A DNA stretch of 57,201 nucleotides from NCBI GenBank assembly GCA_030167865.1, contig JALAGF010004552.1, positions 1-57,201 of the forward strand, read 5' to 3'. The notes under the pieces are model-generated. The model saw nothing but the letters and a program-made list of their open reading frames with translations. It had not been told where the DNA came from and did no database searches. The translations under genes were made by a program, and so were the position numbers. This document shows positions 15,168 to 54,309 of this stretch, in pieces (the first letter of the stretch is position 1; each line of letters begins with the position of its first letter). The stretch comes from Craspedostauros australis. Its lineage: Eukaryota.

Positions 15168-15932
15168 CTACAGCTGACCCTTCGCCCGGATGATCTCCTG
15201 CAGCATGAAGTGCTTGTGCTTGGAGATGCGATGGCACGGCACGATCATGACGAGATCTCCATGACTGGCCACCTCCTTCTCGTCATGCGCCATGAACTTA
15301 CGCGTGTATCGGAGGCGCTTGCGATACTTGCGATTGAGCTTGTACCGTTCCACCGCCACGTTGACGGTCTTCTGCATCTTGGTCGACACGACGTGTCCCA
15401 CCAACGCGCCCTTGGGCAGCTTGCCGGGCGGGGAATGGATGAGATCCCAGCCCGGGATGGTGGACGTGTCGGACAGCTCCTCGTTGGACATTGCCTTGAA
15501 TTCGGGATGGATGCTGGAGAGGGGGACGTCGTCGTCCGGTGGCATGACGTACGACGTGTCCTGGAAGGACGCCATGATCTCATCGACCGTCTCCGGGTGG
15601 GCGCTCAACGCGGAACCTGTCTCTTCGTTGTCGTCGGAAGTAGCCGCCGCCGCTGGTTCGCCATCGTCATCATCATCATCATCATCATCGCCTCCATCAC
15701 CGCCGCTGGAAGAGAAGTACCTTGCGCAGGGATTGCGAGCATGATCCAGAAAGGAAGTGCGCATCCTGCATTGCGTCCAAGCCGAACTGGTGCCTCTGCT
15801 CATTGGAGAGTGCAGCATGCTTGCGTGCACAGAAACGGCAGCGCTCATCATCGTCCTTCTGCCGATCGTGGGTGCCACGATGCTGTTGGCGACCGCCAAT
15901 CGGTGGCCCATCCTCCAGGCGGCGGCCGACAT
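15168..15932 (-). CDS. MRPS17: Mitochondrial ribosomal protein uS17m with long N-terminal extension
   Basis: C-terminal S17 domain GHVVSTKMQKTVNVAVER...KFMAHDE...GDLVMIVPCHRISKHKHF. The Arg/Ser/Ala-rich N-terminus from ATG 15932 resembles a mitochondrial presequence. Confidence 0.88.
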   Translation of the reverse strand: MSAAAWRMGHRLAVANSIVAPTIGRRTMMSAAVSVHASMLHSPMSRGTSSAWTQCRMRTSFLDHARNPCARYFSSSGGDGGDDDDDDDDDGEPAAAATSDDNEETGSALSAHPETVDEIMASFQDTSYVMPPDDDVPLSSIHPEFKAMSNEELSDTSTIPGWDLIHSPPGKLPKGALVGHVVSTKMQKTVNVAVERYKLNRKYRKRLRYTRKFMAHDEKEVASHGDLVMIVPCHRISKHKHFMLQEIIRAKGQL

Positions 15933-16508
15933 GATCTTGCGAAGCTGCGTTGTGATCTCCTGACCGGTCGGTGGTGTCTGTAACTCAGTTCGTTGTTCGT
16001 CTTTCCACAACGTTTCGTTTTCACGCTTCAGCTGTCTCCTCGTTCCGCGCAATACGAACTCGGATAGAGTCGACGAATCGTCACGAAGCCAAGCCTCAGA
16101 GGATTGAGGTTCTAACGGTAGTCCAGGTACGCTGGGTATAGAGGAGTTGTAGTTGGTGGTTCTACGATGCGGATCCTCGTTGGGTTGGCATGAACGGCGG
16201 CTGCTTGATGTCTTGGCCACCATTGTCACGAGCCATCAAAATCCAGCTTTGTCGTTGATGCAACGGGCGTTGGCCAGACGTATCATCATCCAAGAAAAGA
16301 AGAGAGAAGAGTGATTCGAAGGAATCGTGTCCACAAACAAGTTTACGCGCCAAAAAGCAGAAGTTTTGGCACAGTGTTCTCTTTCGTGTACACGCATGGT
16401 CGTTGTATTTGATGTGGCTCTTTGGTATTCCAGAGTTGCATGTTGGTGGCAGATCATCAAGCATAAGCAACAACAACCACAATCGTGTCCACGGTATCGC
16501 AGATCAAC

Positions 16509-19500
16509 ATGATGGATGCCGCAACTGCAAAGACATCGAGCATCATCCTGTTCTACAAGTACCATCCACTCTCGGATGATGACGGCGTCGTGGAGCTGTA
16601 TCGATCGGCCTTGGAGGCGCTGTGCGGGTCGTTGCAGATGAAGGGCCGCATCCTCGTGGGTTGCAACGCGCAGCGATCCGAAGGCATCAACGGGACGCTG
16701 TCGGGACGCCCGGATAGAGTGGTGGCGTTCACCATGGCTCTGTCGCATCATCTGCCGACGCACAGATCCAGCCAGGACGTTGCTGCGCCATCCACGATAC
16801 CGCAAGCCGTACGTGACGACGAAGCAACCATGCAACACATGACGACATTTTGGAATGCGTGTCAGACATTTTACGAACGTGCCGACTGCGAGCCATTGCT
16901 CATGAGCACCAAGGATTTCAAATGGAGCACGGTGCCGCAGGATGCAGAGCCCGCCAATGACACGCACTCGCTTTTCCCCGATCTCAACATCAAGCTCGTC
17001 AAGGAGCTCATCGGCACGGGTGGTTTGCTTGCGGACATTTCCATCCAGGAAACGTCGAAAGGCTATCTGACCCCGGATCAGTGGCATGAGCAGTTGAATG
17101 GTTTCAGTCACCAGCAGCAGCAGGAAGAGGTTGGAGCGGCGGATACTCAAGTGGGCAGCGACGGCAACAGCAGCGACGGCAAAAGCAAAAACAACGACAC
17201 CGTACTCATCGACTGTCGCAACACGAAGGAGTACCAAATCGGCCACTTCCCCAACGCTCTCAATCCCAACACCACCACATTCCATCAATTCCCACAATGG
17301 GTCAAGGATCATCAGCATTCCCTTCAAGGCAAGAAGGTCCTCATGTACTGCACCGGCGGCATCCGCTGCGAGAAGGCGTCGGCCTACATTCGCAACACGG
17401 TGCCCGACGTCCAAGCGGTCTCCCATCTGCAAGGTGGCATCCACAAATACCTCGAGCGATACGGATCCAAAGGCCTTTGGCAGGGGAAGAACTTCGTCTT
17501 TGATGGTCGTGGAGCGGCGACTGCCGATGCGACGTACAAGTCGAGTGTTCCGTATAGCATGCCATCCACGAGTAATGCACCGTCGGTGGAGCCAACGAAT
17601 GGTAATGCCAGTGGAGCTGTAACCAGCAGCGACACCACCGCCAACAGCAGCAACAACAATGACAGCAACACGGACGAACTCGTCGTCGGCCAATGCACCT
17701 ACTGTTCTGCGCCCTACGATTCATTCGACCCGCGTTGTGTGTGCACGGTCTGCCGCGAACCCATCCTCGTCTGCAAGTCCTGCCAATCCAACCTCACGGA
17801 GTTCCACTGCGACGCGCACACCGCCTTGCGGGAGTGCTACTTCACACGGTTGGAACCATTCTCGGTGCAGCAGTTGCAACGTCAGCAGGCACAGCTGCAG
17901 CATCTCATGGCGCAGATCGCGGTCGGCAAAAAGTTCAAGCAGCGTCGCAAGACGATGCAACGGCAGATTCAAAAGATCGTGGATCGGCTGGAGGAGTTGA
18001 AACAAATGGAAAAAGATGGCGTTGCACCCATCATGACCAAATCTCAAGTCGACTGTCGCAATTGCGGCGAAGTATCCTGCGATGGACGATGCTGGGGATT
18101 CCTTGGATTGGGGCGGAAACAGAAGCTGGAGGCGTCTGCTTCAGCTGCGGCAAGCAGCGATTTGGAACAAGCAAATGGGAATGCAAATCACAACGGTCAC
18201 AATGCCCATCACCAACACAGGAGCGCCTCACCAACGTCGACTGTGTCCACCCAGACGCAACCGCAAATACAGACGAACAGACCAAAGAAGCAAAATGGAA
18301 ACAATCAGCATCTGCGTGAAAGGAAGGAGAGGGAGCGGCAGCAAGCGATTCAGGAAATCGTGGATCTGGGTTTGTGCAAGCCATCATCGATGCATCGGGA
18401 TCCAAACACGGGAATCCGGGTTCCACCGCCATGCACTCGCGTCGTGTCCACCAGGACCAAGGGCAAATGGTGCGGGCGATCGGTGCTGCATGTCATCCGA
18501 GAGCAGTTCCATGACTTGATGAAGCTGGATGAGCTGGTGGACATCTTGAGACTTGGATTGCTGCGCGTCAACGATATGAAAATCACGTCCATCGATCAGG
18601 CAGAGACGACAAAGCTCAAGAACATGGACGTCCTCAGCCGCTTCGTGCACTGGCATGAACCGCCTGTGCATATCCCGCGCAGCATTATCCAGACGCAGAA
18701 GGTGCCGCTGCCGCAAGCCGTCATCGACGAACATCAAGTCGCTGCGGACGATGCGACGATCTACGTCTGCAACAAACCATCGACGGTCCCGGCGCATCCT
18801 GCCGGCACCTACTTCTCCAATTCGCTCACTTCCATGGTGGAAGGTATTCACAATCTGCGGCCGAAGGATCTGATTCCATGCCACAGAATTGACCGAGTCA
18901 CCAGCGGTCTGACCCTGTGCTGCACGAACGTTCAGGTTGCGCGGCTCGTGCAGAGCCGGATCGATGAAGGGGCGGTGCAAAAGCTGTACCTCGCAAAGGT
19001 CAACGGTCTCTTCCCGCATTCTTCAAACGCCATGACGGATGCTTCGCTACCCGCCTGCACGGGTGTGTCCAACTGGCTGTGGCGAAGGGACACCACGTTG
19101 GAAGTGCACGGTCCCATCGAAACAGTCGACCCTGCCAATGGCATTCGCAAAATCACATCCAAGGGCAAACCCGCCGCAAGTATGTTTCGATTGATTGCTC
19201 ATGATACGGGCGATGGGACGTCCATCATCTTGTGCCGACCGCTGACAGGACGCAGCCATCAATTGCGCGTCCACTTGCAGTGGCTGGGACATCCGATCAT
19301 CATGGACAGCCAATATGACGGACCTGGTGATGCCCCCAACAAGGATGGACCGGCAGCATTAGAGGCGTCGACGAAACTGGGTCCATCGTGCGAAGCATCC
19401 AGCAGTTCTGTATCGCCTGACGACGTTGCTGCTGTCCGCACAGTGTGCAAATGCTGTACAAAGTCAGTATCCGATGCCTTTTCGCCGGCCCAGCTCCTGC

Positions 19501-19778
19501 AGGGTGGACATGCGATCTGTTTACATGCCTACAGGTATCGCATCCCGTTCATCCCCAAGAGGAGCAAAAAGAAGAAGAAGAAAAAGCGCAAGATGATGGA
19601 TGAGATCGATACGAACGCGGCGAATGTATTGGTACAAGGAGGGGGCGAAGTGGAATCAGAGCTGAAATCTACCGACCAAGCGAATCATGATATCATCATT
19701 GGCTCTGTCGATGTCCACGTCGATTTGCCAGAGTGGGCCTGCGATGTGAACTCGTCACAACTGACCTGGCTTGAATGA
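16509..19778 (+). CDS. Fusion protein: TrhO/TSTD2-type (UPF0176) rhodanese plus RluA-family pseudouridine synthase
   Basis: The N-half has ILFYKY, GRILV...EGINGTLSG, DCRNTKEYQIGHF, MYCTGGIRCEKAS, HLQGGIHKY, GKNFVFDGR and a Cys-rich tail. The C-half has NKPSTVPAHP, HRIDRVTSGL (catalytic Asp), LTGRSHQLRVH, GHPI-x2-D-x2-Y and CLHAY. Both halves lie in one uninterrupted ORF of ~1089 aa. Confidence 0.92.
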   Translation: MMDAATAKTSSIILFYKYHPLSDDDGVVELYRSALEALCGSLQMKGRILVGCNAQRSEGINGTLSGRPDRVVAFTMALSHHLPTHRSSQDVAAPSTIPQAVRDDEATMQHMTTFWNACQTFYERADCEPLLMSTKDFKWSTVPQDAEPANDTHSLFPDLNIKLVKELIGTGGLLADISIQETSKGYLTPDQWHEQLNGFSHQQQQEEVGAADTQVGSDGNSSDGKSKNNDTVLIDCRNTKEYQIGHFPNALNPNTTTFHQFPQWVKDHQHSLQGKKVLMYCTGGIRCEKASAYIRNTVPDVQAVSHLQGGIHKYLERYGSKGLWQGKNFVFDGRGAATADATYKSSVPYSMPSTSNAPSVEPTNGNASGAVTSSDTTANSSNNNDSNTDELVVGQCTYCSAPYDSFDPRCVCTVCREPILVCKSCQSNLTEFHCDAHTALRECYFTRLEPFSVQQLQRQQAQLQHLMAQIAVGKKFKQRRKTMQRQIQKIVDRLEELKQMEKDGVAPIMTKSQVDCRNCGEVSCDGRCWGFLGLGRKQKLEASASAAASSDLEQANGNANHNGHNAHHQHRSASPTSTVSTQTQPQIQTNRPKKQNGNNQHLRERKERERQQAIQEIVDLGLCKPSSMHRDPNTGIRVPPPCTRVVSTRTKGKWCGRSVLHVIREQFHDLMKLDELVDILRLGLLRVNDMKITSIDQAETTKLKNMDVLSRFVHWHEPPVHIPRSIIQTQKVPLPQAVIDEHQVAADDATIYVCNKPSTVPAHPAGTYFSNSLTSMVEGIHNLRPKDLIPCHRIDRVTSGLTLCCTNVQVARLVQSRIDEGAVQKLYLAKVNGLFPHSSNAMTDASLPACTGVSNWLWRRDTTLEVHGPIETVDPANGIRKITSKGKPAASMFRLIAHDTGDGTSIILCRPLTGRSHQLRVHLQWLGHPIIMDSQYDGPGDAPNKDGPAALEASTKLGPSCEASSSSVSPDDVAAVRTVCKCCTKSVSDAFSPAQLLQGGHAICLHAYRYRIPFIPKRSKKKKKKKRKMMDEIDTNAANVLVQGGGEVESELKSTDQANHDIIIGSVDVHVDLPEWACDVNSSQLTWLE

Positions 19779-20081
19779 GCTGGGGGAAGTGCTGGCCATT
19801 GTTCCCTCTCCAGAGGACCACGAGTAGCACCACCCAGTCCTGACATGATCTCTGAACGTTCAGATTCATCGGGCGCGATGGGCGTGCTGGGAAGAACAAC
19901 GGGAACGCCAACAACATCGATGCACGCACCTGTTCATCCACGAAGCACGCGTTTCATGTCCGAGTACAGTAGAGAATATGGCACGAGTCTGATACTAATG
20001 TTGTATGATTTGATGTTTGATTTGACAGGCTGCGATAGCATACGTATGGCGTACAGAGTGCGGATACTACTGCAAGAGTCT

Positions 20082-21941
20082 CTAGAGGTCACCGTAGAGC
20101 ACCACGACGCTCGCAATGGCACTCACAAGGGACGCAGCGATTGCGAAGGCCATGGATCGGACACTGGTGCCGGATGTTGGTTGCATGCTGGGCGGTTCAG
20201 ACACCAGTTGAGTGGGAGCAGCTGTCGCATCAGCAGTCGGCTTGTCCGTCGGTGTATCCGTGGGTGCATCGCTTGCCTTGGTTGTAGGTGCATCACTTGC
20301 CTTGATGGTTGGCGCATCTGTGGGTGCATCCGTTGGGGATGGGGTTGTGGGAGCATTTGATGTGGTGTTGGGGAGCGGCACGCCCAGCTCCTCCAGGGCC
20401 GCAGCGATCCAGGAGTCTTCGCCACTATTGCGTTCCTCCAACGCAAGCAACTCCGTCTCGATGGTCACGTGCGGCGGGAGTCCGACAATCTCGTGCATAG
20501 TTCCATTCGTGTCTCTGTAAACCTCGTTCGACAGCGTCACCTGGTACCCATTGTCCAACTTCTTCCCCAGCATGTCGGAGAATGCGCCGTGGGTGTTGTG
20601 CCCCATGACGGTCACGAACGGCAGCTCCTTCATCGCGAGGGTGAACACTTCTCCCGCGCTGACGGTCGATTCGCTGGCGAGAACAACGACGCGTCCCGAG
20701 AACGTGAGCTCAGGATGATTGAAATTCTCGATGATCACATCGTATGACTCCGTGAAGGTGGAGATGGTCTGGTCGCCTGCTGGTGCCATTTTGGCCTGCT
20801 TCGACATGGCAAAATAGTCCTCGTTTGCGAACAATGCCGCTAGGAAAACGGAGACGGAATCCGTGCCACCGGTGTTGAGGCGCACATCAAAGATGACGCT
20901 GTCCACATCGTTGAATGCCTTCATTGCATTGAAGAGCTCTTCTTCTGCTGCGTTCGTGTCTTCGGGACTCATGCTGAACATGAACATGTAGCCTACGTTG
21001 GCATGGCGGAGCTTGCCCCAAAGGATGTGATCAAAATCTCCACGCAGCCCATCGTCATCCATGTAACTGGAGACGATATTGAGGAACCTTCCGAGCTGCT
21101 GAACGATGTACGTATCCACAGTCGGCGCGACTGAGGTAGACGCGACTTGGACTTGCGCCTCCCATTCCTCCGCCAACAGTGCTTGGAATGTGATGAGTTT
21201 CGTCAAGATGGACCCATCTCTTCCTGGGATTGCGATGGTGACGTGGATATCATCCACCGCTTGCAGCAGTTCCAATGCGACCTCGAAGAAGGAGAGGTCG
21301 GAATCAGGATCCTGCAGCTCCTCCCGAGCGGCAACCACCATGGCTTCCCAATCCAAATCACGCTCCTCAAAGAACGCGAAATGCTCGCGGAAGTTCGCCG
21401 CCAGGATATCCAAGCTACGTAGATCATCTTCCACGTAGCCTTCATCTCCTACGGTGGGCGTGAGCCCAACTGATCCGCACACTCCGGGCAATGCATCCTG
21501 CTTGTCAAAGATGATCGGTGCCAAGCCGTCGATGTTGAATTCCATGGTTGTTGCGTCGAGCAGATCGTACCCGTCGCTGCCATCCAAGGCGAACATGTCC
21601 TCATCCAAGATGCAGCTGGTGGCGGTGAGCTGGAGTTCGATGAGGAACTCCGGGTCCGACACGAAGACGATGCCGTATCCACGCGAAAGCCAAATGCCCT
21701 GCGGGACGATCATCGGATCAGTGCCCTGCATTTGACGTTGGTTGGAACGGGTGCTGCTGGTGCGCCGATGGGAGATGGATTTACCACGGCGGGCATCATT
21801 GGCCCACTTCTGCAAGGATGCCGTGAGCGGGTCCGATGATGGGCCTCGGAGATGGGCGCCGGTTGAGGTTGCGGTTGGAGTGCAGGCCTGAAGGTTGGCC
21901 ATCATGGAGATGAATGCGAGAGCTGCTGATGCGAAAATCAT
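20082..21941 (-). CDS. Secreted S41-family (tricorn C1 + S41) serine peptidase with PT linker and probable GPI signal
   Basis: Signal-like start MIFASAALAFISMMA at 21941. Motifs are NFREHFAFF...DW, DIHV, IFDVRLNTGG, TVSAGEVF (catalytic Ser), THGAFSD, LSNEVY and EIVGLPP. A PTDAPT linker is followed by a hydrophobic C-terminus. No intron is evident. Confidence 0.88.
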   Translation of the reverse strand: MIFASAALAFISMMANLQACTPTATSTGAHLRGPSSDPLTASLQKWANDARRGKSISHRRTSSTRSNQRQMQGTDPMIVPQGIWLSRGYGIVFVSDPEFLIELQLTATSCILDEDMFALDGSDGYDLLDATTMEFNIDGLAPIIFDKQDALPGVCGSVGLTPTVGDEGYVEDDLRSLDILAANFREHFAFFEERDLDWEAMVVAAREELQDPDSDLSFFEVALELLQAVDDIHVTIAIPGRDGSILTKLITFQALLAEEWEAQVQVASTSVAPTVDTYIVQQLGRFLNIVSSYMDDDGLRGDFDHILWGKLRHANVGYMFMFSMSPEDTNAAEEELFNAMKAFNDVDSVIFDVRLNTGGTDSVSVFLAALFANEDYFAMSKQAKMAPAGDQTISTFTESYDVIIENFNHPELTFSGRVVVLASESTVSAGEVFTLAMKELPFVTVMGHNTHGAFSDMLGKKLDNGYQVTLSNEVYRDTNGTMHEIVGLPPHVTIETELLALEERNSGEDSWIAAALEELGVPLPNTTSNAPTTPSPTDAPTDAPTIKASDAPTTKASDAPTDTPTDKPTADATAAPTQLVSEPPSMQPTSGTSVRSMAFAIAASLVSAIASVVVLYGDL

Positions 21942-23415
21942 GGTGGCTTGGGTCTTTGTTTTTGTGTTTGGTTGGTGATATAATAGAATAGTTGTTAAGG
22001 CAATGCTTTGGATGTGAACTATATTGAACTTGGAGTGCTTGTTGGTGTTTTGATTGTGTGCTGTGTTGGTGTTGTTTTTGCTGTTTGTTGAAATTGTGAG
22101 CAGATGAACTCCCATCTCCATCCGACGCATGACGAGGAACGCATGGACCGTGCTCCTCGTCATCAATACGCGTACGAGCACCATACGCGTCCCATACTCG
22201 TACCATACCTGTACTATACACGCAGCACAGCGTTCATCGCCCACAAACCAAGGTGCCCAGAGCAAGCAGTACCATAGTTGTATGGCGGAGACTACGAGCC
22301 TTCATGTGATCGGTCACATCCTCCCTAGCTTCCACTTGGTTCTTGGATAGCGAAGCATGATCCGACGATCTTCTTCAGGATGCATCGTGAACATTCCCAG
22401 ACGCGGGCCTGGCATGCGGCGTCGGTTTGATCGGTACCGTCTACTTTTGGCGCGGCGGTTTGATCGTCAACGAAATGATCAATTGGCTCTTGTTTGCAAC
22501 GAAATTGTGAAGGGCCGACCATCACCCAACCTGAAAATTGATCGCTCGAATCGCATGGAAGGCTCAGCATGCTATTGTGATGTGAAGTGAAGTGCTGCCA
22601 TGGGAGATCTTTGTGGATCGTGCTCCTTACCAAAAGCTCCAACGTGACTCGTGGTGATCTTCGTCGAGGTTCATCTGGGAGCTTGCTTCTTGTTCGGCCA
22701 TGTTCTCGCACAATCTTCGGTCCAAAAGGCGCGTGTCTTGTGTTGGCGGTCAACCCATGGCTTCGTGATCGCAAATGCAGGACACTGGCAGCAGCCAACG
22801 AAATGCCGAGCATCTTGCGACACGATCCAGAGCGCGATCTCTTGTCGCATGATATAATACTCGGGAAGGTCGATCTTGATCTGCGTACATTCGCGTCTGC
22901 ATGGAGAGGCATCGTCTGCCGTGTTGTGTCGCGGTGACTCTGGCTTCGGTTCCTGACGATGAACACATCAAAACAAAGAACAGAGGCGAACATCGATGAA
23001 CCAATTATGACAATAGGAGGTTATTTGGCGGTTACACCACACAGTTTAAAAGTCCAATGTCCGTATGATTCGCGAGGGCGGGAAATGAAAGCATTGTCCC
23101 AAATGGGGACATGATGCCAAACTCGGCGAAAAACACGATCGCAGGGCGAAAAACGACGAGGAACAGTCAACCCGAACAAAACAAACGAGGACTTTCGCCA
23201 TCATCAGCACGTTCGACGTTCTGGACGACTGTGCCAATCCTCGCACTCGTGCTGATAGCTTGGCAGCATAGTACGATACTGTACGATCTAAGGCAAACAA
23301 GGCAGCGCCATCAGCGTTGTGAAAGCACTGCCATCTTCACAGTTTCACAACAGTTTCACAACAGTTTCGCCGCATGCGAGATGCAACGTGCGACTGGAAC
23401 AGATTTGAAAGCGCA

Positions 23416-37730: not shown

Positions 37731-40700
37731 TCATTTCTCAGTTTCTAATCCGAACTTCCTGACCAACTGCTCATCCAAGACATTGCGGCTGATGGTCTCA
37801 CGATTGCGGAAAGGCACGTCCAACCGGCCAGCCGTGTAAGCACCGATGAGCAAGCCGACCAGTGCCTGTTTCGACCCATCCGCCTCAAGCAGAGCGCTGG
37901 CAAGTTCGATGACTGCATCAGCCAGATTGCGGTGCACCTTCAGCAATCTGGATCGAATCGCGGCGTTGCTCCCGCCACAGCGAGATGCTGCCGTGGCAAC
38001 GCACCGAACAAGCATGCCGACTCCGAGAAGGACGATATAACCATCAGCAGGCCGAATCGCATTCGATGGGCTGATCAGGAGAGTGACAGCGTCCAGGACA
38101 TCAGCATCATCGCGCTTGGATTGATCGGCGCTAGGCAGCCCACCAAGCATGCTCTGTGCCAGCAACACGCTCAAGTCCTCAGCGCTTGCGTCATCTATCT
38201 CTCTGGGCAACGTCAGCAGATGCGCGATGCTCCTCAGCTCGTCGATCGCACGGCATCGGATGCGGCCCGGGAACAGTGGCAGCAAGAACAGCCTGACTAT
38301 CATGGTGAAGAAATCGTACTGGGCACCGTAATCCTTGTACGCATTCGCCAGATCCTCGAGGAATGCCTCCAACGACTTGATGCCGTCAGATGACACTCCG
38401 CCCGTTCCAATATTCGGGTTGAAGAATGCCATCAGCTGTTCCTCCTGAGGATTCAGCTTGTCATCGAAGGGATTTGCTCCTCCTACCCCCGCCGCTGCTG
38501 CTGGTGTCGATGTTGCGGTGGCATTGGCAGCAGTGGCCGATGGCGATGGACTCGGCGCAGCCTCCGATCCTCCCGCTTGGGATGCTTTCGAGTGCGACTT
38601 TCTATCTTTGCCAGGGCTGGTATGCTCCACGCACGCAGTCGCGAAGTCCACCAGTATTTCCCTGCCTCGCGCATCATCGTCCATGTTGAAGTACGGAAGA
38701 TATCGCTGCAGGATCGATTCTGCCGTTTCGGTGACGCGATCTTCGCGAAGCACAGACTCGGGATGGAGGCATACATTCATCAAGTAGTACATCTTCGAAC
38801 CCAGCGAAAGTCTTGGAGCGTACCCGGCTGTAGACTGCACTTGTTCGTGTGTAGTGCTGCCGCTTGTCGCTTTCGTCCCTGTTTCCGTTGCCACTGCCGT
38901 CGTTGACATTGGCCTTGGTGTTGCGTGCAAGTCTTCTACTTGCTCCAATTCCAGGATAATCCCCAGAGTTGCGGCGACGACTTTGGTTGCTTCGCCGCTG
39001 CCTTGGTCGACGCGGCTGGCATCCTTGACCTGCACAAAGCCTGATAGAGTCTGCCACAACCATTGCTTTCCCATGGGCAAGGTGAAGGTGCTGCTTGCGC
39101 GCGCGTTGTCATCGGTGTCACGTTCGGCGCCGCCGTCTCCGCTGTTTCCCTGCGAGTCGTGGCCACCGCCATGGTCGGATGTGCTCAGCAAGGAATCCAA
39201 TGCAAACGCACCGAAACCCTCCGGAGTGATTCCAAAGCCGTGATGGAGCTTGAATGAGTGGTCCAACTGCTTCCTTGCGCTTGGAGTTCCACACAACTCG
39301 CCAAGGAACATGGATGATATTGGCGATGCTGATTCCGCCGAGAACGGCGACCCGTCGTCGTTGTCATTGACATTAGCGTCAATATTGCCCGTGCCGCTAT
39401 CGCCAGCTGTGAGTGTTCGCGCGTCTGAATGAGCACTACCGCTGTTCATTTCATCACCGGCGCTGACCCTCGACTGCAGCAGCGGGTTCCCGGTGAGCTG
39501 AAACAGCAGATCCTGACTGAACAGGATGGCGGCAAGGGATTCGTTGCCGTGTTCCAAGCGTCCGACCATGGCGAAGATGAGGTATCGGATTCTGGAAATG
39601 TCGACAGATGCCGTGATTACTCCAGCGGCAACCTCGTGGGTCAGCAGCTTCCCGACTGCAGAGATGCCCCGATTGATCCATCCACGACGCGCGATCGATA
39701 ACAACAGATGTGCGTTGCTTCGTGGTGGCGATGATGATGCTGACGTTCCGTCGATTTGTTGGAATTTCATGGATTCGGCGATCCCTTCCATGAACGCCGC
39801 ATTTATTTGGTCCAGGATGGATGTCAGAGAAAGCTTGAGCTGTTGCATCAAGGCAGGATTTGTGCCACCCGCGCAGCCCTCGGACATGCGGATGTTTTGT
39901 TCAATCGCGATCACGAGAGATACCAGAGACTCGAGGAACGCAGAGCAGCTGGCTTCAACCTGCGCAGATGGGAGGCTCACTTCCTGGCCGCCCTGGCTCC
40001 TGTCGACAAAGCGAACGGGCTGCGCAGTGAGATCCATGGCACCAACGTACGGTAACAGCTGCTTCCAAGCATATTCCACCAACCCATCTGGCCGCAGCCA
40101 CCCGAACAGCTTCGAGAGGCACGCGACCTGATCTTCTGCTGCAATCGATTCTGAATCGCTGGATTTCGAATCTCCAGCATCAGTATCCTGCACCGGATTC
40201 GGTGGAAGGTTCAGGAACGCCGACAGCACGCGCATGCGAACAGCATTCCAAACCAGCATCGAGCAAACTTTGTTCGCGTCGCTGTCGCCGTCGATGTTGG
40301 CTTCGACAGTATCTGCATCTATGAGCTGGGACAGCGACACCGATCGAGTTGACGACAGAACGGTGGTGGAGAGCGTCAGTGCTTCCACTTGTGCCTGGTT
40401 GAAAAGCTTACTTGCCACGATGACGGCCGGCGGTTTGCTGTATAGCACCTTGGTGCAGTTCAGCACTTCGGCGAAACACGACAGGAACTCGTTGGAAAGC
40501 GGGTACTCAACGCGTTCGCTATTGCGTTCGCCATTGCGTTTCGGGCTGTCCCATTGGCCGATGGCCAAGTGACGGGCCGACAATGTGCTCATGGTGGACA
40601 AGCCTGACAAGCCAAGGCCGTAGCGGAGCATCGTCCTCCACAGTATCAACCCCTGACGCTGCAGGCTGTGCTCGTGTTGATTTTGGGCGGTGCTGCAGAG

Positions 40701-42875
40701 CAACGGAGGTAGAAGATCCAGCAGTATATCCTTCTCATCGATGGCTTGCGCTACGACTCTGGATTGGCGCGCGAGGGTCCTGAGCAGTGTGAGAACGGCG
40801 AAGTCGGCGCCGTACTGCGCTGGGATTGTTCGAGCCAGAAATTCATTGCTGCCACCTTGCGTCCCCCCAGGAAGTGCGGTCTCCTCGTCGTCGACTGGCG
40901 CGGCACCGATGTTGTCTTGGAGATACGACTGTCTGCGCAAGGAGAGGTCCAAGAGATTGGATATGAGGGTGGGGTGATGCATAATCGCGGAGGCGGCACC
41001 AGGACTGCGCTGACCTATCATTGCGAGTATCCCAGCTGCCGCGATGACGCCCTCCGGTGGAAACGCTTGGTCGTCATGCAGCTGCTGCTGCTGTCTTTGG
41101 CTCTGTGCGCTGGCAGACTGTTGTTCGCTGCGAGGCACGTCGGTTCCCGCACCTGTGTCGCCATCCTCCTTCGTTTCCTCGTCAGTACGGTCATCAAGGT
41201 CTTTGGCGATGGTGCTGGATCCCATCTTGAGCAGCTGCGCCAAGCGTGGGATCATCTTCATCTTGGAAAGGAGAGTCCACATGGGGTCATTGGCAAATGC
41301 CTTGGCGTCAGAATTGGCGGACGTGGACGATGAGTTGGTGGCGTATGCTGCAGCTTCGCCAGTCTTGGATTTGGGGATGTTCGGGTTGGAGACCGGCTCG
41401 ATCGTCGTCGGTGCGTAGAGCTTATCGAGAGAGGGTGTTGGGATAGCATCATCCATTAAATACGTCACATGGATGTGGTGATCGTGGTTGTCCGCGGTGG
41501 CGTCTCCGAGAACCGAATCCTCCTCGATGGTGTCGATGGCATGGTGCATATCGACCGAGACGACATGATCACGGTTCGAGTAGAGCAGAACTAAGCTGTG
41601 CAAGCTCTGAAGCACAAGGGAATGCAACTGGAAGCCGTTGAGTTTCGAGGTAGGTTGATCAAGAATGCACCTGAGTGAGACTGCGAGAAGGTCAGGGAGC
41701 TTCGGTAGTGATGGTGATGTCGATGGCGGTGGTCGCTGCCGCTGCTGCATGGTTTGATCAGCCTCAGCCCTATTGCTTTGCAATGTCTCGGTCACAACCT
41801 TGACAGCCCACAATATCTGCCTGGGCGAAGTCGAACGCAGCAACCTGCATGCGGTTTCGAATTCTGTCTCATTTTCTGGAACTGTGCTGTGAGGAACAGC
41901 GTCATAATCTCCGGACCTTTCCTTCTGCTCCAGATACAGCGCATCCAGCTGTTCGTAAGTTTGCACCGATGCCAGCGCTTGATCCGTGCCTGCGTGGGGT
42001 GCTCTCGCTGCGGAGTCTTCGCTCGATTGAACTGAGTGCGCCGATGCTGATGCATTGGTTGGTGCCGTGGCTTCTTTCTGCACAATGTACGACGGTGTCG
42101 CAAATGAAACGCGTTTGCCTCCTTGCTGCTGCTGCTCCTGTTGCTGCTTGTTTTTCTTCTGTGCTCCACGTCGTTTCAAGAATGAAATTGCCTGCGGGGA
42201 AAGAATTGCGCTGATTTCATTCAAGGACTCTTGAATGTCAGCCTTCGACATGCCGGTCACCATGGCTGAGGCATCGTTGCTGGAATGATTCGATGGATCT
42301 GGCACACCATCTGCCATGCCTTCACCGTGCGTGTCCTTTTGTTTTTCGTAGGAAACATCAGGGTTGGTATCGTCTCCTTCCAACGGAGGCATTTCATCAT
42401 CCTCCTCGTTGTCATCGTTGCAAGCTTGACTTCTTCCATCGCCATCAGCCTTGCCAACAGGAAGATCCTTTGCTTTGGTGGTTGCCGTCCCTTTGGAACG
42501 TGTGTGTGTTGCAGCAGGGCCTTGCTGATCCCTGCCCTGATGCACAAAGGTCCCGATAGGGTGATCCAATGATGGGAACCCAGTGGGAGCATCACTTGAT
42601 GTGACCTCAGATGCAGGCACTTCCACGTTCGCACTGGTGGGTGTCGAAGCCATGAATCTGGACTGCCTGTTGGCGTTGGCGTTAGCGTTGCCACCGCCGC
42701 CATTGCTACTGTCGGCATGCTTCTTGGCACGACGACGGAACGGACGACGGCTCTTCTGCGCAGGAGCTCTCTCAACAACGGAACCAACAAGAGAGAGGGC
42801 GCCGAGCGCATTGGGACCACCTTCACCCGCGGCAGCGCCGCCCTTCGTCCCTGCTCTGCTCGCGCTTGGCATCAT
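37731..42875 (-). CDS. RPAP1: RNA polymerase II-associated protein 1 (RPAP1/Rba50/MINIYO-like)
   Basis: A 1714-aa ORF with LVGSVVER and TGFP. It has an RPAP1_N-like MSKADIQESLNEISAILSPQAISFLKRR, an RPAP1_C-like RLLRSTSPRQ, and a helical remainder. Confidence 0.8.
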   Translation of the reverse strand: MMPSASRAGTKGGAAAGEGGPNALGALSLVGSVVERAPAQKSRRPFRRRAKKHADSSNGGGGNANANANRQSRFMASTPTSANVEVPASEVTSSDAPTGFPSLDHPIGTFVHQGRDQQGPAATHTRSKGTATTKAKDLPVGKADGDGRSQACNDDNEEDDEMPPLEGDDTNPDVSYEKQKDTHGEGMADGVPDPSNHSSNDASAMVTGMSKADIQESLNEISAILSPQAISFLKRRGAQKKNKQQQEQQQQGGKRVSFATPSYIVQKEATAPTNASASAHSVQSSEDSAARAPHAGTDQALASVQTYEQLDALYLEQKERSGDYDAVPHSTVPENETEFETACRLLRSTSPRQILWAVKVVTETLQSNRAEADQTMQQRQRPPPSTSPSLPKLPDLLAVSLRCILDQPTSKLNGFQLHSLVLQSLHSLVLLYSNRDHVVSVDMHHAIDTIEEDSVLGDATADNHDHHIHVTYLMDDAIPTPSLDKLYAPTTIEPVSNPNIPKSKTGEAAAYATNSSSTSANSDAKAFANDPMWTLLSKMKMIPRLAQLLKMGSSTIAKDLDDRTDEETKEDGDTGAGTDVPRSEQQSASAQSQRQQQQLHDDQAFPPEGVIAAAGILAMIGQRSPGAASAIMHHPTLISNLLDLSLRRQSYLQDNIGAAPVDDEETALPGGTQGGSNEFLARTIPAQYGADFAVLTLLRTLARQSRVVAQAIDEKDILLDLLPPLLCSTAQNQHEHSLQRQGLILWRTMLRYGLGLSGLSTMSTLSARHLAIGQWDSPKRNGERNSERVEYPLSNEFLSCFAEVLNCTKVLYSKPPAVIVASKLFNQAQVEALTLSTTVLSSTRSVSLSQLIDADTVEANIDGDSDANKVCSMLVWNAVRMRVLSAFLNLPPNPVQDTDAGDSKSSDSESIAAEDQVACLSKLFGWLRPDGLVEYAWKQLLPYVGAMDLTAQPVRFVDRSQGGQEVSLPSAQVEASCSAFLESLVSLVIAIEQNIRMSEGCAGGTNPALMQQLKLSLTSILDQINAAFMEGIAESMKFQQIDGTSASSSPPRSNAHLLLSIARRGWINRGISAVGKLLTHEVAAGVITASVDISRIRYLIFAMVGRLEHGNESLAAILFSQDLLFQLTGNPLLQSRVSAGDEMNSGSAHSDARTLTAGDSGTGNIDANVNDNDDGSPFSAESASPISSMFLGELCGTPSARKQLDHSFKLHHGFGITPEGFGAFALDSLLSTSDHGGGHDSQGNSGDGGAERDTDDNARASSTFTLPMGKQWLWQTLSGFVQVKDASRVDQGSGEATKVVAATLGIILELEQVEDLHATPRPMSTTAVATETGTKATSGSTTHEQVQSTAGYAPRLSLGSKMYYLMNVCLHPESVLREDRVTETAESILQRYLPYFNMDDDARGREILVDFATACVEHTSPGKDRKSHSKASQAGGSEAAPSPSPSATAANATATSTPAAAAGVGGANPFDDKLNPQEEQLMAFFNPNIGTGGVSSDGIKSLEAFLEDLANAYKDYGAQYDFFTMIVRLFLLPLFPGRIRCRAIDELRSIAHLLTLPREIDDASAEDLSVLLAQSMLGGLPSADQSKRDDADVLDAVTLLISPSNAIRPADGYIVLLGVGMLVRCVATAASRCGGSNAAIRSRLLKVHRNLADAVIELASALLEADGSKQALVGLLIGAYTAGRLDVPFRNRETISRNVLDEQLVRKFGLETEK

Positions 42876-43746: not shown

Positions 43747-45432
43747 ATGTTCAGGCCGGCGGTTTCAAAGATCCGAATGGGGATTGCTCCTTCGTCTTCA
43801 TTGGCCAGGATGACTGGTGGTAGGATGCATCCAGCCGCCTTCTCCGCGTCGCTGGTGTCGGACATCCAGTCGATGCATCAGAGGAGCTCATCCACCAAAG
43901 CCCAACCATCATCCCTGCCACCTCTCGAGAACATCCCACTGGTGGGAGGAGAGAGCGATGGGAGGCTGGTGGTGCTTGGCACGGGATGGGGCGCATTCAA
44001 CCTCGCCCAGCGTCTATTTCAGCACTACAAATACAAAGATGAGGTCCGCATCGTCAGCCCCGCCAATCACTTCCTCTTCACGCCGTTGCTGCCAAGCACC
44101 GCGGTCGGCACGCTGGAGTTCCGCTGCATCGAGGAACCCATTCGCAAGGTGCTCAAGGGATATCCGGACGCCAGGTACGTCCAGGCCAAGGCGCAGTACG
44201 TCGATCCGGACGAGAAGGTCATCCTCTGCCAGTCCACGATGAAGCGCTTCAACGCCGCGTCACTGTTGCCAGCAGGCTCGGATGGAGAGTCCGCCGCGAA
44301 GACCACCACCAACGCTTCGGAATGGTTCAAGATCAAGTACGACCAGCTCGTCATCTCCGTCGGCGTCAAGACCAACACATTCGGCATCCCCACCATCCAG
44401 GAGGGCAACGGCGTCTACTTCTTGAAGAATCTATACCACGCCCGGCAGGTGCGCAACAACATCATCGATTGCTTCGAGAATGCGGAAATCCCGGGCATGT
44501 CGGATGCGGAACGCAAGCGGTTGCTCTCCTTCGTCATCGTGGGTGGCGGTCCCACATCCTGCGAATTTGCGGCCGAGCTCTACGACTTTGTCACCAATGA
44601 CGCGATCAGCCTCTACCCCGCCATGATGAAGCACGTGACCGTCTCCGTCGTGGAGGCCGGACCCGCTCTGTTGGGACCCTTCGACCAGCAACTGCAGCAG
44701 TACACCAAGGGGCTCTTCGAGAAACGTGACATCAAAGTGCGGCTCGGGACCTCCGTCATTGGGATTGAAGATTACGACGGACACGACGGTGACAATGACG
44801 ATGGTGCGCGGTTCCGGTTTCAGGCAAGGCGCGCCATGCTGTCCGACGGCACGACTTTACCCTTCGGTACCTTGGTGTGGTCCGCTGGGTTGGCGCCGAT
44901 CAACTTGATTAAGAATTGCAAAGAGGCCGGGACACTGCCCACAGCTCGAAACGGCCGCATCCTGGTGGATGAATACCTGCGCGTCAAGGGACACGAAGGC
45001 ACCATCTGGGCCATGGGTGATTCCGCCATGTGCGAGGAGAAGCCGGTGCCGCAGCTTGCGCAAGTGGCACGTCAGCAGGGTCTGTATCTGGCGGATGTCT
45101 TCGCCAAGGGCCAGAATAGGGCTCCAGCCAAATCTCAGAAAAGCGATGGCACGGCGTCAGCATCGGTGCCGCCTCCACCTTCCTACAAACCATTCGAGTT
45201 TTTCAGCTTGGGCAGCATGGCCAGTCTGGGAGAATTCAAGGGAGTTTACGATGGATCGCATGTGGGCAAACCAGGTGAAGAGGTGCAGGTCGGTAGGATC
45301 ACTGGATACATCGCACTCTTCATGTGGAGATTTGCCTACTGGGGCCGCCAGACCAGCATCGAGAACAAGATCTCCATCCCATTCCACTGGTTCAAGAGTT
45401 TCCTTTTCGGGCGAGACGTTTCGCGGTTTTAG
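43747..45432 (+). CDS. Type II (alternative, rotenone-insensitive) NADH:quinone oxidoreductase, mitochondrial
   Basis: Presequence-like N-terminus. Motifs are RLVVLGTGWGA, NHFLFTPLLPSTAVGTLE, IVGGGPTSCEFAAEL, VWSAG, WAMGD, PQLAQVARQQG and C-terminal FGRDVSRF. No clear EF-hand, so NDA-like. Confidence 0.95.
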   Translation: MFRPAVSKIRMGIAPSSSLARMTGGRMHPAAFSASLVSDIQSMHQRSSSTKAQPSSLPPLENIPLVGGESDGRLVVLGTGWGAFNLAQRLFQHYKYKDEVRIVSPANHFLFTPLLPSTAVGTLEFRCIEEPIRKVLKGYPDARYVQAKAQYVDPDEKVILCQSTMKRFNAASLLPAGSDGESAAKTTTNASEWFKIKYDQLVISVGVKTNTFGIPTIQEGNGVYFLKNLYHARQVRNNIIDCFENAEIPGMSDAERKRLLSFVIVGGGPTSCEFAAELYDFVTNDAISLYPAMMKHVTVSVVEAGPALLGPFDQQLQQYTKGLFEKRDIKVRLGTSVIGIEDYDGHDGDNDDGARFRFQARRAMLSDGTTLPFGTLVWSAGLAPINLIKNCKEAGTLPTARNGRILVDEYLRVKGHEGTIWAMGDSAMCEEKPVPQLAQVARQQGLYLADVFAKGQNRAPAKSQKSDGTASASVPPPPSYKPFEFFSLGSMASLGEFKGVYDGSHVGKPGEEVQVGRITGYIALFMWRFAYWGRQTSIENKISIPFHWFKSFLFGRDVSRF

Positions 45433-53055: not shown

Positions 53056-54309
53056 AATTGAATTTCGCAGATGGGTGAGTGCTCTCTTACACTGAAGTGT
53101 GCGAGACTCTAACGCCTTGCATCATCAAATCATGCTCGTCTTCATTCGTATTCTTCTGATACGAAAACATGTCGTTTTTCATCTCATGGGGATCGAACAT
53201 TCGGCTAAACTTGCACATGGACATGGGAATGGGAATGAACACCAATGTGGAAACCAATGTGAACACCAATGTGGAAACCAATGTGAACACCAACTTGAAC
53301 GCCAACGTGGAAACCAACGTGGACACCAACGTGAACACGGACATTGAATGCCAAAACGGAAACTTGATGGACACATCGTCGATGCATACGCACCTTCTCA
53401 TAACTCGCGCTTATGCTTACACTTTCTGGTTGGCGCAGGGAAACGCTGGAGATCCGAAATGTTTGGGCAGAGAATGTCGCAGAGGAGATGGCGGTGATCC
53501 GCGAGGTCATCGAGAAGTACCCGTACGTTGCTATGGACACGGAGTTCCCCGGAGTTGTGGCAAAGCCAGTCACGGAGAGCTACACGTCCGACTTCCATTA
53601 CAAATCGCTCAAGGTCAATGTGGACCTGCTCAAGATTATCCAACTCGGCCTCAGCTTCGCGGACGAGAAGGGCAACCTCTGCAAGCCGCATTGTTGCTGG
53701 CAGTTCAACTTCAAGTTCGATCTGGATGATGACATGTTTGCGCAGGACTCCATCGACCTCCTCATCAAAAGCGGTATCTCCTTCGCTGATCATGCCGTGC
53801 GCGGCATCGACCCCCAGCACTTCGGTGAGCTCCTCATGGTCAGCGGCCTCGTCTTGAACGATCGGGTCAAGTGGGTCTCATTCCATTCGGGATACGATTA
53901 CGCCTACCTCATGAAGCTCTTGACGACGGTGGACCTGTCATCCACGGAGAAGGAGTTCTTCGAACTGCTGCGGATCTATTTCCCAAAGATCTACGACATA
54001 AAGTACATGACGTCGCTCCTCGATGGGCATCACTTCATGGGCGGTCTGCAACGTCTGGCGGATGATCTGGGCTGTCAAAGACTGGGTGCGGAGCATCAGG
54101 CCGGGTCGGATAGCCTCTTGACCATGGCGGCATACTTCGCTCTCGTCAAGGCCAAGTTCACCAATAAAAGCACGGGCAAGGTGGACGACTCGCGGTATGC
54201 GAACGAACTGTTTGGATACGGCACCAACCACACCGTCCGGAAGGGTGCGGCGGCGGCAGCTGCTATGGCGCAGCGGGAGATGTCCTTCTCTTCCAATGCC
54301 AGCGAGTAA
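52603..54309 (+). CDS. CAF1: CAF1/POP2 (CNOT7/8) DEDD deadenylase, 2 exons
   Basis: Exons 52603-52904 and 53439-54309 (GTGCGT...GCAG) give HEG-ETLEIRNVWAEN. Motifs are AMDTEFPG, NVDLLKIIQLG, WQFNF, FHSGYDYAYL, IYDIKY and HQAGSDSLLT. Confidence 0.95.
53017..53060. repeat. Intronic (ATTG)n microsatellite
   Basis: About 10 units visible. Confidence 0.9.
53238..53339. repeat. Intronic 12-bp minisatellite (AACACCAATGTG / GAAACCAATGTG alternating)
   Basis: About 8 degenerate units visible. Confidence 0.85.

Follow-up and report, generated by a model that had tools for sequence, protein, structure and literature searches.

Bacterial TrhO (YceA in Escherichia coli, YbfQ in Bacillus subtilis) is an oxygen-dependent tRNA U34 hydroxylase, and the wide distribution of trhO in eukaryotes was taken by Sakai et al. 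2019 (PMC6599085) to suggest that xo5U-type modification also occurs there. Human TSTD2 is described as a TrhO orthologue with the same two domains in a 2023 review, which found no functional information on this protein (PMC10135228). Pseudouridine 32 is formed in cytoplasmic tRNA by yeast Pus8/Rib2 and in mitochondrial tRNA by Pus9, both of which have an S4-like N-terminal domain (PMC5699540), and human RPUSD2 forms pseudouridine 31 and 32 in three mitochondrial tRNAs (PMC13022450). The genome sequence of the diatom Craspedostauros australis was found to carry a gene that joins a TrhO-type module and a synthase of the RPUSD2/Pus8/Pus9 group in one reading frame. This gene is at positions 16509..19778 of the forward strand of a 57,201-nucleotide stretch (GenBank assembly GCA_030167865.1, contig JALAGF010004552.1, positions 1 to 57,201), referred to here as the window, in which all positions are numbered.

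The first half of the window protein includes the same three Pfam domains as bacterial TrhO in the same order, and the loop CTGGIRCE of E. coli TrhO is identical in it. It differs from bacterial TrhO in its long low-complexity insertions and in a helical hairpin and an extra four-Cys cluster that follow the zinc ribbon, and further in being nuclear-encoded and eukaryotic with a 540-residue synthase extension. The synthase half, with its putative S4-like extension, groups with Pus8(Rib2), Pus9 and RPUSD2 in the trees, and has the catalytic motifs in common with them. However, Pus9 and RPUSD2 are unfused, Rib2 carries a C-terminal deaminase, and none of the three has a TrhO module. Pus9 and RPUSD2 also have mitochondrial presequences (PMC5699540, PMC13022450), whereas the window protein has none. 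E. coli RluA belongs to the same superfamily and shares the catalytic motif, and the RluA-RNA complex is a fold match to the window synthase half, but RluA has no S4-like extension and is separated from it by a well-supported split in the trees.

Bacterial proteins of about 600 amino acids (aa), annotated 'sulfurtransferase family protein' in the protein Atlas, contain TrhO, S4-like and RluA-type synthase parts in the same order with both catalytic motifs, though they are half the length of the window protein and include neither the hairpin and CWGF cluster nor the low-complexity tether. A fusion of yceA with trmR, reported for Phytophthora sojae, P. ramorum and Phaeodactylum tricornutum, served Sakai et al. 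2019 as a hint of function (PMC6599085). Like the window protein, it links a stramenopile TrhO to a tRNA anticodon-loop enzyme, but the partner there is the 5-hydroxyuridine (ho5U) methyltransferase of the same pathway and here a synthase. The methyltransferase family was present in none of the 40 longer TrhO-type matches scanned, which were best matches only.

One reading frame with two intact modules

The open reading frame (ORF) consists of 1089 codons and a stop, and is uninterrupted, as the first-pass annotation of this DNA had reported. Across this interval, 23 and 24 stops interrupt the two remaining forward frames, so that one open frame this long far exceeds what chance would give. 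An in-frame stop is found 14 codons before the ATG, with no upstream in-frame extension, and none of the 81 N in the window falls in the ORF, the translation of which includes no X. All of the motifs named in that annotation were recovered at the positions it gave, namely YCTGGIRCE (aa 280-288, nt 17346-17372), CRNC...CWGF (aa 516-531), HRID (aa 792-795, nt 18882-18893), TGRSHQLRVH (aa 913-922), LHA (aa 1005-1007) and a K7RK run (aa 1020-1028).

Pfam families were matched above their cut-offs in both halves. These were UPF0176_N (PF17773, aa 11-86, 37.4 bits against a cut-off of 26.2), Rhodanese (PF00581, aa 227-315, 42.2 against 22.2), Rhodanese_C (PF12368, aa 325-435, 29.0 against 26.9) and PseudoU_synth_2 (PF00849, aa 751-924, 75.5 against 26.8). 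The NCBIfam TrhO equivalog NF001133 was passed marginally, with 171.4 bits against a cut-off of 170. The bacterial model rluA_subfam (TIGR00005) scored 136.4 bits, under its cut-off of 192.7, and the RluA equivalog 52.3 bits against 286. Eukaryote-type insertions lie within the synthase domain at aa 838-868, 938-990 and 1012-1065.

Conservation was counted in an alignment of 46 fused proteins from diatoms, a bolidophyte and a labyrinthulomycete, and both catalytic centres were invariant in all 46. Together with the Pfam scores, this bears out the proposal of an intact TrhO-type module joined to an intact RluA-family synthase. An AlphaFold2 model of the fused protein, calculated from a 46-sequence alignment, had a mean predicted local distance difference test score (pLDDT) of 80.2 and a predicted template modelling score (pTM) of 0.52. 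Both modules are confident in the model, and pLDDT falls below 50 at aa 345-388, 552-598 and 1025-1059.

The TrhO-type half

The protein opens with the UPF0176_N acylphosphatase-like domain (16539..16766), the first modelled strand of which starts at aa 9. Almost nothing stands upstream of this domain, and N-terminal extensions across the family have a median length of 16.5 aa, leaving no room for a targeting presequence. The rhodanese domain follows at 17187..17453, and the rhodanese part shares 47% identity over 109 aa with E. coli TrhO (from NC_000913). Its active-site loop YCTGGIRCE, of the Cys-x4-Arg type, is invariant in the 46 fused proteins. The five residues of E. coli TrhO whose mutation abolishes complementation (K112, C200, T201, G203 and R205; PMC10135228) all have aligned counterparts in the fused protein, namely K162 (16992..16994), C281, T282, G284 and R286. 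C281, T282, G284, R286 and also C287 were each kept in 46/46 fused proteins, and K162 in 43/46.

The Rhodanese_C/zinc-ribbon region (aa 325-445, 17481..17843) is interrupted by a low-complexity Ser/Asn-rich loop, the low-confidence segment at aa 345-388. Candidate zinc ligands after the rhodanese domain are C396, C399, C412, C415, C422, C425, C434 and H437, of which C434 is kept in 45 and the other seven in all 46 fused proteins. Two zinc ions were reported for E. coli TrhO in a preprint (bioRxiv 10.1101/2025.11.10.687516), and the eight conserved Cys/His positions, as putative ligands here, would fit them.

The zinc ribbon is followed by a predicted helical hairpin (helices aa 453-469 and 474-502, 17865..18014) and by the four-Cys cluster CRNCGEVSCDGRCWGF (18054..18101), in which C516, C519, C524 and C528 are each Cys in 43/46 fused proteins. 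This segment had been read as a coiled, Cys-containing linker. However, the hairpin and a CRxCG...CxGxCWGF cluster are also found at the C-terminus of unfused TrhO-type proteins from diatoms, oomycetes and a chlorarachniophyte, and the unfused oomycete proteins stop directly after CWGFW. What looked like a linker thus belongs to a eukaryote-type TrhO module, as its C-terminal end. Foldseek searches with the TrhO half retrieved the Legionella UPF0176 structure 4f67 and entry 9j5o, entitled 'TrhO from B. subtilis complexed with tRNA Ala', each with a template modelling (TM) score of 0.74 on the target.

The junction and the synthase half

The two halves are connected by a low-complexity tether of about 47 residues (aa 552-598, 18162..18302), predicted to be disordered and placed between helices at aa 530-554 and 597-620. 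The region including it (aa 536-635) is the least conserved part of the fused protein, with a mean pairwise identity of 22%. The N-terminal extension of the synthase (aa 636-745, 18414..18743) is described as S4-like from its position and its relatives; it is conserved in RPUSD2-type relatives and confidently folded in the model. Pfam S4 gave no match in the window protein, and 21.9 bits in the relative P0161, under the cut-off of 22.8, while Foldseek aligned full-length RluD over 377 columns.

The RluA-family catalytic domain (aa 746-1011, 18744..19541) holds the HRID motif with the predicted catalytic Asp795, together with Tyr827 and Arg915. H792, R793, D795, Y827 and R915 were invariant in 46/46 fused proteins. 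Foldseek matches of the synthase half included the RluA-RNA complex 2i82 (TM 0.66-0.69), as well as RluD and RluC. The K7RK run was originally taken for a poly-Lys tail, but it sits in a variable insertion (aa 1012-1065, 19542..19703), modelled with low confidence, between the LHA strand and the conserved final strand, and only 11/46 family members have a run of at least four K/R in this insertion. The synthase fold is completed by a final strand and helix (aa 1066-1089, 19704..19775), assigned from conservation and the model, in which P1074 is invariant and W1076 is found in at least 90% of fused proteins.

A conserved gene in diatoms and their relatives

A length-matched search returned 182 relatives, and the figures given here are from the 120 listed. 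PF00849 and at least one TrhO-module family were found in one protein in 119 of the best 120 of the 182 relatives, by our own count of the table; UPF0176_N and the synthase family were both present in 96 of the best 120. Fused genes occur in pennate diatoms (Cylindrotheca, Nitzschia, Pseudo-nitzschia, Amphora, Epithemia and Fistulifera) and in centric diatoms (Cyclotella, Thalassiosira, Discostella and Skeletonema). Farther from the window protein, fusions were also recorded in the bolidophyte Triparma laevis and, at the transcript level, in the labyrinthulomycete Mucochytrium quahogii, and the fusion is thus not confined to diatoms. Identity to the closest match among the relatives listed was only 48-49%, indicating that the window's own protein was absent from the collection searched. 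The trees placed the window protein among raphid pennate diatoms, and the protein Atlas contained a cluster of its own kind with 56 members from Bacillariophyta.

Five MMETSP transcript-derived proteins (P0009, P0058, P0024, P0171 and P0257) cross the junction. The flanks of the junction are kept, with L620 in 36/46, L622 in 35/46, R630 in 34/46 and R637 in 44/46 fused proteins, and no conserved internal start was seen, Met628 being present in only 4/46. Three 'short' synthase records (P0270, P0271 and P0282) begin inside the TrhO C-terminal module, which identifies them as truncated copies of fused genes. In a sequencing run of guessed RNA type, one of three contigs touches the gene (nt 19418-19983); it covers the 3' end of the fused gene and 205 nt past the stop and is silent on whether there are one or two transcripts. 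The fusion is a conserved gene family and not an assembly accident, and the claim of a real single-gene fusion was sustained.

Many relatives are annotated automatically as 'predicted sulfurtransferase/23S rRNA-/tRNA-specific pseudouridylate synthase'. The public models P0300 (Phaeodactylum tricornutum, 168 aa) and P0168 (Fragilariopsis cylindrus, 301 aa) are partial and synthase-only, and in these two model diatoms the fusion may for this reason have gone unremarked. No publication that describes or tests a TrhO-synthase fusion was found, in a search that most subscription journals and supplements lay outside. P0025 from Nitzschia sp. Nitz4 (1586 aa) has an extra PF00211 (adenylate/guanylate cyclase) domain beside the fused architecture and is possibly two merged gene models.

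The number of origins was addressed with approximately unbiased (AU) tests. A single clade of all 19 fused TrhO modules was rejected (p = 9.75e-5) when unnamed rows were kept, in a test where the labelling of these rows is uncertain and the group had been defined only once the tree was known. Without the 16 unnamed 'ALONE_unn' and 'LONGnoPUS' rows the single clade is not rejected (p = 0.072). The labyrinthulomycete-type clade shifts position between trees, and the eukaryotic fusion, with its diatom and labyrinthulomycete types, may have had one origin or two.

Affiliation of the synthase half and other TrhO genes

All trees were quick searches with Shimodaira-Hasegawa-like approximate likelihood ratio test (SH-aLRT) support only and no bootstraps. 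The synthase trees did not include RPUSD1, RPUSD3, RPUSD4, Pus5 or Pus6, PDB representatives of which score lower (35-40 bits), and the TrhO alignments include no animal homologue. Outside the diatoms, aa 600-1030 are closest, among named proteins, to fungal tRNA pseudouridine synthases, to deaminase-bearing Rib2-type proteins (PF00383 with PF00849) annotated as tRNA pseudouridine(32) synthase, to RPUSD2 of animals and chytrids, and to unfused proteins of Saprolegnia. Three trees united the stramenopile synthase halves with RPUSD2 of animals and with Pus8/Rib2-type and Pus9-type proteins of fungi in one clade (SH-aLRT 99-100), which stands apart from E. coli RluA, RluC and RluD and 17 other unfused bacterial synthases. 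The suggested link to pseudouridine-32 enzymes is thereby strengthened, as members of this group are makers of tRNA 31/32 pseudouridine.

Diatoms with the fused gene also hold an unfused TrhO paralogue of 516-546 aa, which forms its own clade and shows 33-34% identity to the window's module in Nitzschia inconspicua, Fistulifera solaris and Cylindrotheca closterium. Oomycetes have unfused proteins for each of the two halves. In the unfused diatom paralogue P0247, a MIB_HERC2-like domain (43.3 bits, cut-off 33.5) stands C-terminal of the CWGF cluster; the corresponding match in P0453 is weak (20.2 bits), and P0420 and P0451 have a similar extension by alignment. In plants, two surveys recorded ho5U in tRNA, one of them at position 34 of tRNA-Gln(UUG), and named STR6 and STR7 as TrhO homologues (PMC11954249, PMC10298058). 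The listing of STR6 and STR7 with IPR020936 in a coconut survey lends indirect support to the earlier designation of plant STR6 as a TrhO homologue.

The same architecture in bacteria

The protein Atlas also has clusters of bacterial proteins, about 605-615 aa long, with PseudoU_synth_2, Rhodanese and UPF0176_N in 98-100% of their members. This domain set is carried by 9/30 Atlas matches, the commonest phylum being Planctomycetota by Atlas label only. A phylum survey was conducted on 401 sampled genomes of Verrucomicrobiota, the phylum of a Verrucomicrobiales metagenome-assembled genome. UPF0176_N was detected in 82 of these genomes, and 14 of the 82 matches sit in open frames of 598-648 aa. 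Twelve of the 14 frames were fetched, and every one had the CTGG[IV]RC loop and the HR[LI]D motif in one frame; a Pfam scan found UPF0176_N, Rhodanese and PseudoU_synth_2 in 4/4 bacterial frames, ordered as in the window protein. The window protein and one bacterial fusion are 38% identical over their rhodanese parts and 33% over their synthase parts. A contig scan of 80 bacterial TrhO loci gave no fused gene, and the bacterial fusions came only from the Atlas lead and the phylum-wide family search.

Of the bacterial sequences sampled, the synthase halves of the fusions stand closest to the eukaryotic group, with which they form a joint clade (SH-aLRT 98). With a larger bacterial sample the two remained on the same side of a split with SH-aLRT 96, in a tree whose drawn root is distorted by the row Verruco183_a (377 aa, no synthase motifs, branch 5.26), probably a wrong frame. 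By eye, the bacterial fusions L082-L089 and L097-L100 show PLPGSVPY..., G-R-L-V-D and V-E-P-P-V between the zinc-ribbon Cys residues and the synthase. The same landmarks are seen in the eukaryotic S4-like extension, which fits the sister position of the synthase halves.

In the TrhO tree, by contrast, the TrhO halves of the bacterial fusions fell beside TrhO of proteobacteria and Prochlorococcus and outside the eukaryotic clade, and forcing the bacterial and eukaryotic fused halves together cost 30.7 log-likelihood units, with a borderline AU p = 0.047. The separate placement of the TrhO halves leans towards a pairing that may have arisen more than once. Taken together, the trees leave two histories for the pairing, partial inheritance or repeated invention.

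Neighbouring genes and the remainder of the window

The divergent neighbour is a Ribosomal_S17 ORF on the reverse strand (15168-16223, domain at aa 276-342), and 285 bp separate its start from that of the fused gene. It has an N-terminal extension of about 275 aa including a poly-Asp run, and is organellar-type in look. The convergent neighbour, also on the reverse strand, is a Peptidase_S41 ORF of 700 aa (20082-22184, domain aa 396-574) with a C-terminal region rich in Thr, Pro and Ala. Both neighbours are unrelated to the fusion. Three ORFs of 396, 211 and 208 aa that overlap the fused gene (16236-17426 and 18384-19019 on the reverse strand, 17693-18319 on the forward strand) gave no Pfam match and probably arise as shadow frames within GC-rich coding sequence.

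Elsewhere in the window, an NDH2-type oxidoreductase (43747-45432) and a CAF1 ribonuclease (53413-54309) are encoded on the forward strand. A 1714-aa ORF on the reverse strand (37731-42875) and nine further window ORFs of 261-574 aa had no Pfam family at E <= 1e-5, and no tRNA genes were found in the window.

Discussion

If both halves share one substrate, this is most likely the tRNA anticodon loop. We propose that the gene encodes a single polypeptide of the cytosol or nucleus, in which two active RNA-modifying centres serve the same tRNA anticodon stem-loop, and we place about as much trust in it as doubt. By family, the synthase half would isomerise U31/U32 through Asp795, and the TrhO half would use O2 to hydroxylate C5 of the wobble U34 by means of the Cys281/Arg286 loop and Lys162. 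From the anatomy of the protein, the flexible tether would allow both centres to visit one bound anticodon loop in turn, in a hand-over and never simultaneously, during which the S4-like domain and the basic tether may keep the loop bound. The enzyme is expected to reside outside the organelles, as it has no N-terminal presequence. We infer only that isomerisation of U32 may be coupled to hydroxylation of U34, and the pairing suggests, rather than proves, joint work of the two halves. Its recurrence in bacteria strengthens the case for one shared substrate. That a fusion can serve as a clue to an RNA role of the TrhO family was also the argument of the first-pass annotation; the idea itself was not new, as the yceA-trmR clue had been published (PMC6599085).

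Several observations weigh against a shared anticodon loop. No fixed mutual arrangement of the two centres is predicted by the model, in which pTM is low and the tether disordered. Judged by the title of entry 2i82, RluA engulfs the loop, which could then hardly be shared at any one time, and any coupling would have to be sequential. The unfused paralogue in the same diatoms could be the real wobble hydroxylase. We know of no xo5U on record for stramenopiles, though no search was aimed at it. C5 of U34 in eukaryotic cytosolic tRNA normally carries 5-methoxycarbonylmethyluridine (mcm5U)-type groups, which compete with hydroxylation (PMC6599085). Human RPUSD2 is mitochondrial and has no confident cytosolic tRNA substrate (PMC13022450), while the fused protein has no presequence. 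Finally, yeast Pus8/Rib2 joins a synthase of the same family to an unrelated deaminase, which makes fusion weaker evidence of a shared pathway.

This last protein is the precedent for the main rival explanation, in which both halves are active on different substrates and fusion only ties their expression; the synthase would form tRNA pseudouridine 31/32 and the TrhO-type half would hydroxylate or sulfurate something else. Rib2 is an RNA-modification enzyme joined to an unrelated activity (PMC5699540), the named proteins closest to the synthase half include some with both PF00383 and PF00849, and eukaryotic TSTD2-type proteins have no known function (PMC10135228). Nevertheless, the only activity demonstrated for the TrhO family is on the tRNA anticodon loop (PMC6599085), and the pairing recurs in bacteria with a different TrhO lineage, which is hard to explain without a functional link; we regard two separate substrates as unlikely. 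It is rather improbable that both halves act on some other RNA, such as rRNA, snRNA or mRNA sites with a common local motif. E. coli RluA is annotated as a 23S rRNA pseudouridine(746) and tRNA pseudouridine(32) synthase, Pus9 was reported to act on some mRNAs (PMC5699540), and the K/R-rich tether and insertion would be consistent with a protein of the nucleus or nucleolus, but the members of the RPUSD2/Pus8/Pus9 group characterised in the work cited mainly target tRNA 31/32 (PMC13022450, PMC5699540), and a TrhO structure is, by the title of 9j5o, a complex with tRNA-Ala.

Two further explanations question the activity or the unity of the protein. One half alone might be catalytic in vivo, while the other, as an accessory domain that binds RNA or senses oxygen or redox state, regulates or directs its partner. 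The TrhO reaction depends on oxygen (PMC6599085), so that the module could report oxygen supply, and rhodanese folds are often non-catalytic (PMC10135228). A purely structural domain would however be expected to lose its catalytic residues, and these are invariant in both halves of the 46 fused proteins and present by motif in 12/12 bacterial fusions, which renders such a division of roles very unlikely. An artefact, either two adjoining genes that only seem joined or two products arising from an internal promoter or internal start, is scarcely credible. Short synthase-only records exist, for example P0273, a 452-aa 'complete' transcript ORF, and the transcript evidence across the junction comes from relatives of C. 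australis. Against this stand the 1089 open codons as opposed to 23-24 stops in the other frames, the conserved flanks and the transcript-derived proteins of relatives that cross the junction, the several short records that are truncated fused genes, and the rarity of Met628 (4/46).

A wider reading, on which we would not rely, is that TrhO and the RPUSD2/Pus8/Pus9-type synthase are ancient partners and that the eukaryotic synthase family descended from a fused bacterial gene; its starting point is the position of the bacterial fused synthase halves as nearest bacterial relatives in our sample. If true, stramenopiles would have preserved or re-created the fused state, possibly more than once (the diatom/bolidophyte type and the labyrinthulomycete type), their cytosolic tRNAs would carry a hydroxyuridine-type wobble base ordered with pseudouridine 31/32, and animal TSTD2 would also function in the anticodon loop.

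Both halves of the window protein are from known families, and their fusion is visible in automatic annotation; the value of the fusion lies in the lead that it offers on what eukaryotic TrhO/TSTD2 proteins do. A conserved fusion to a tRNA 31/32 synthase, in a pairing that recurs in two domains of life, points the TrhO/TSTD2 module to one concrete substrate. Diatoms offer one gene to knock out and two separation-of-function alleles to compare. The order of modification was raised as a question for the human pseudouridine synthases of the anticodon stem-loop (PMC13022450), and the fused gene is a natural system for asking whether neighbouring anticodon-loop modifications follow a fixed order.

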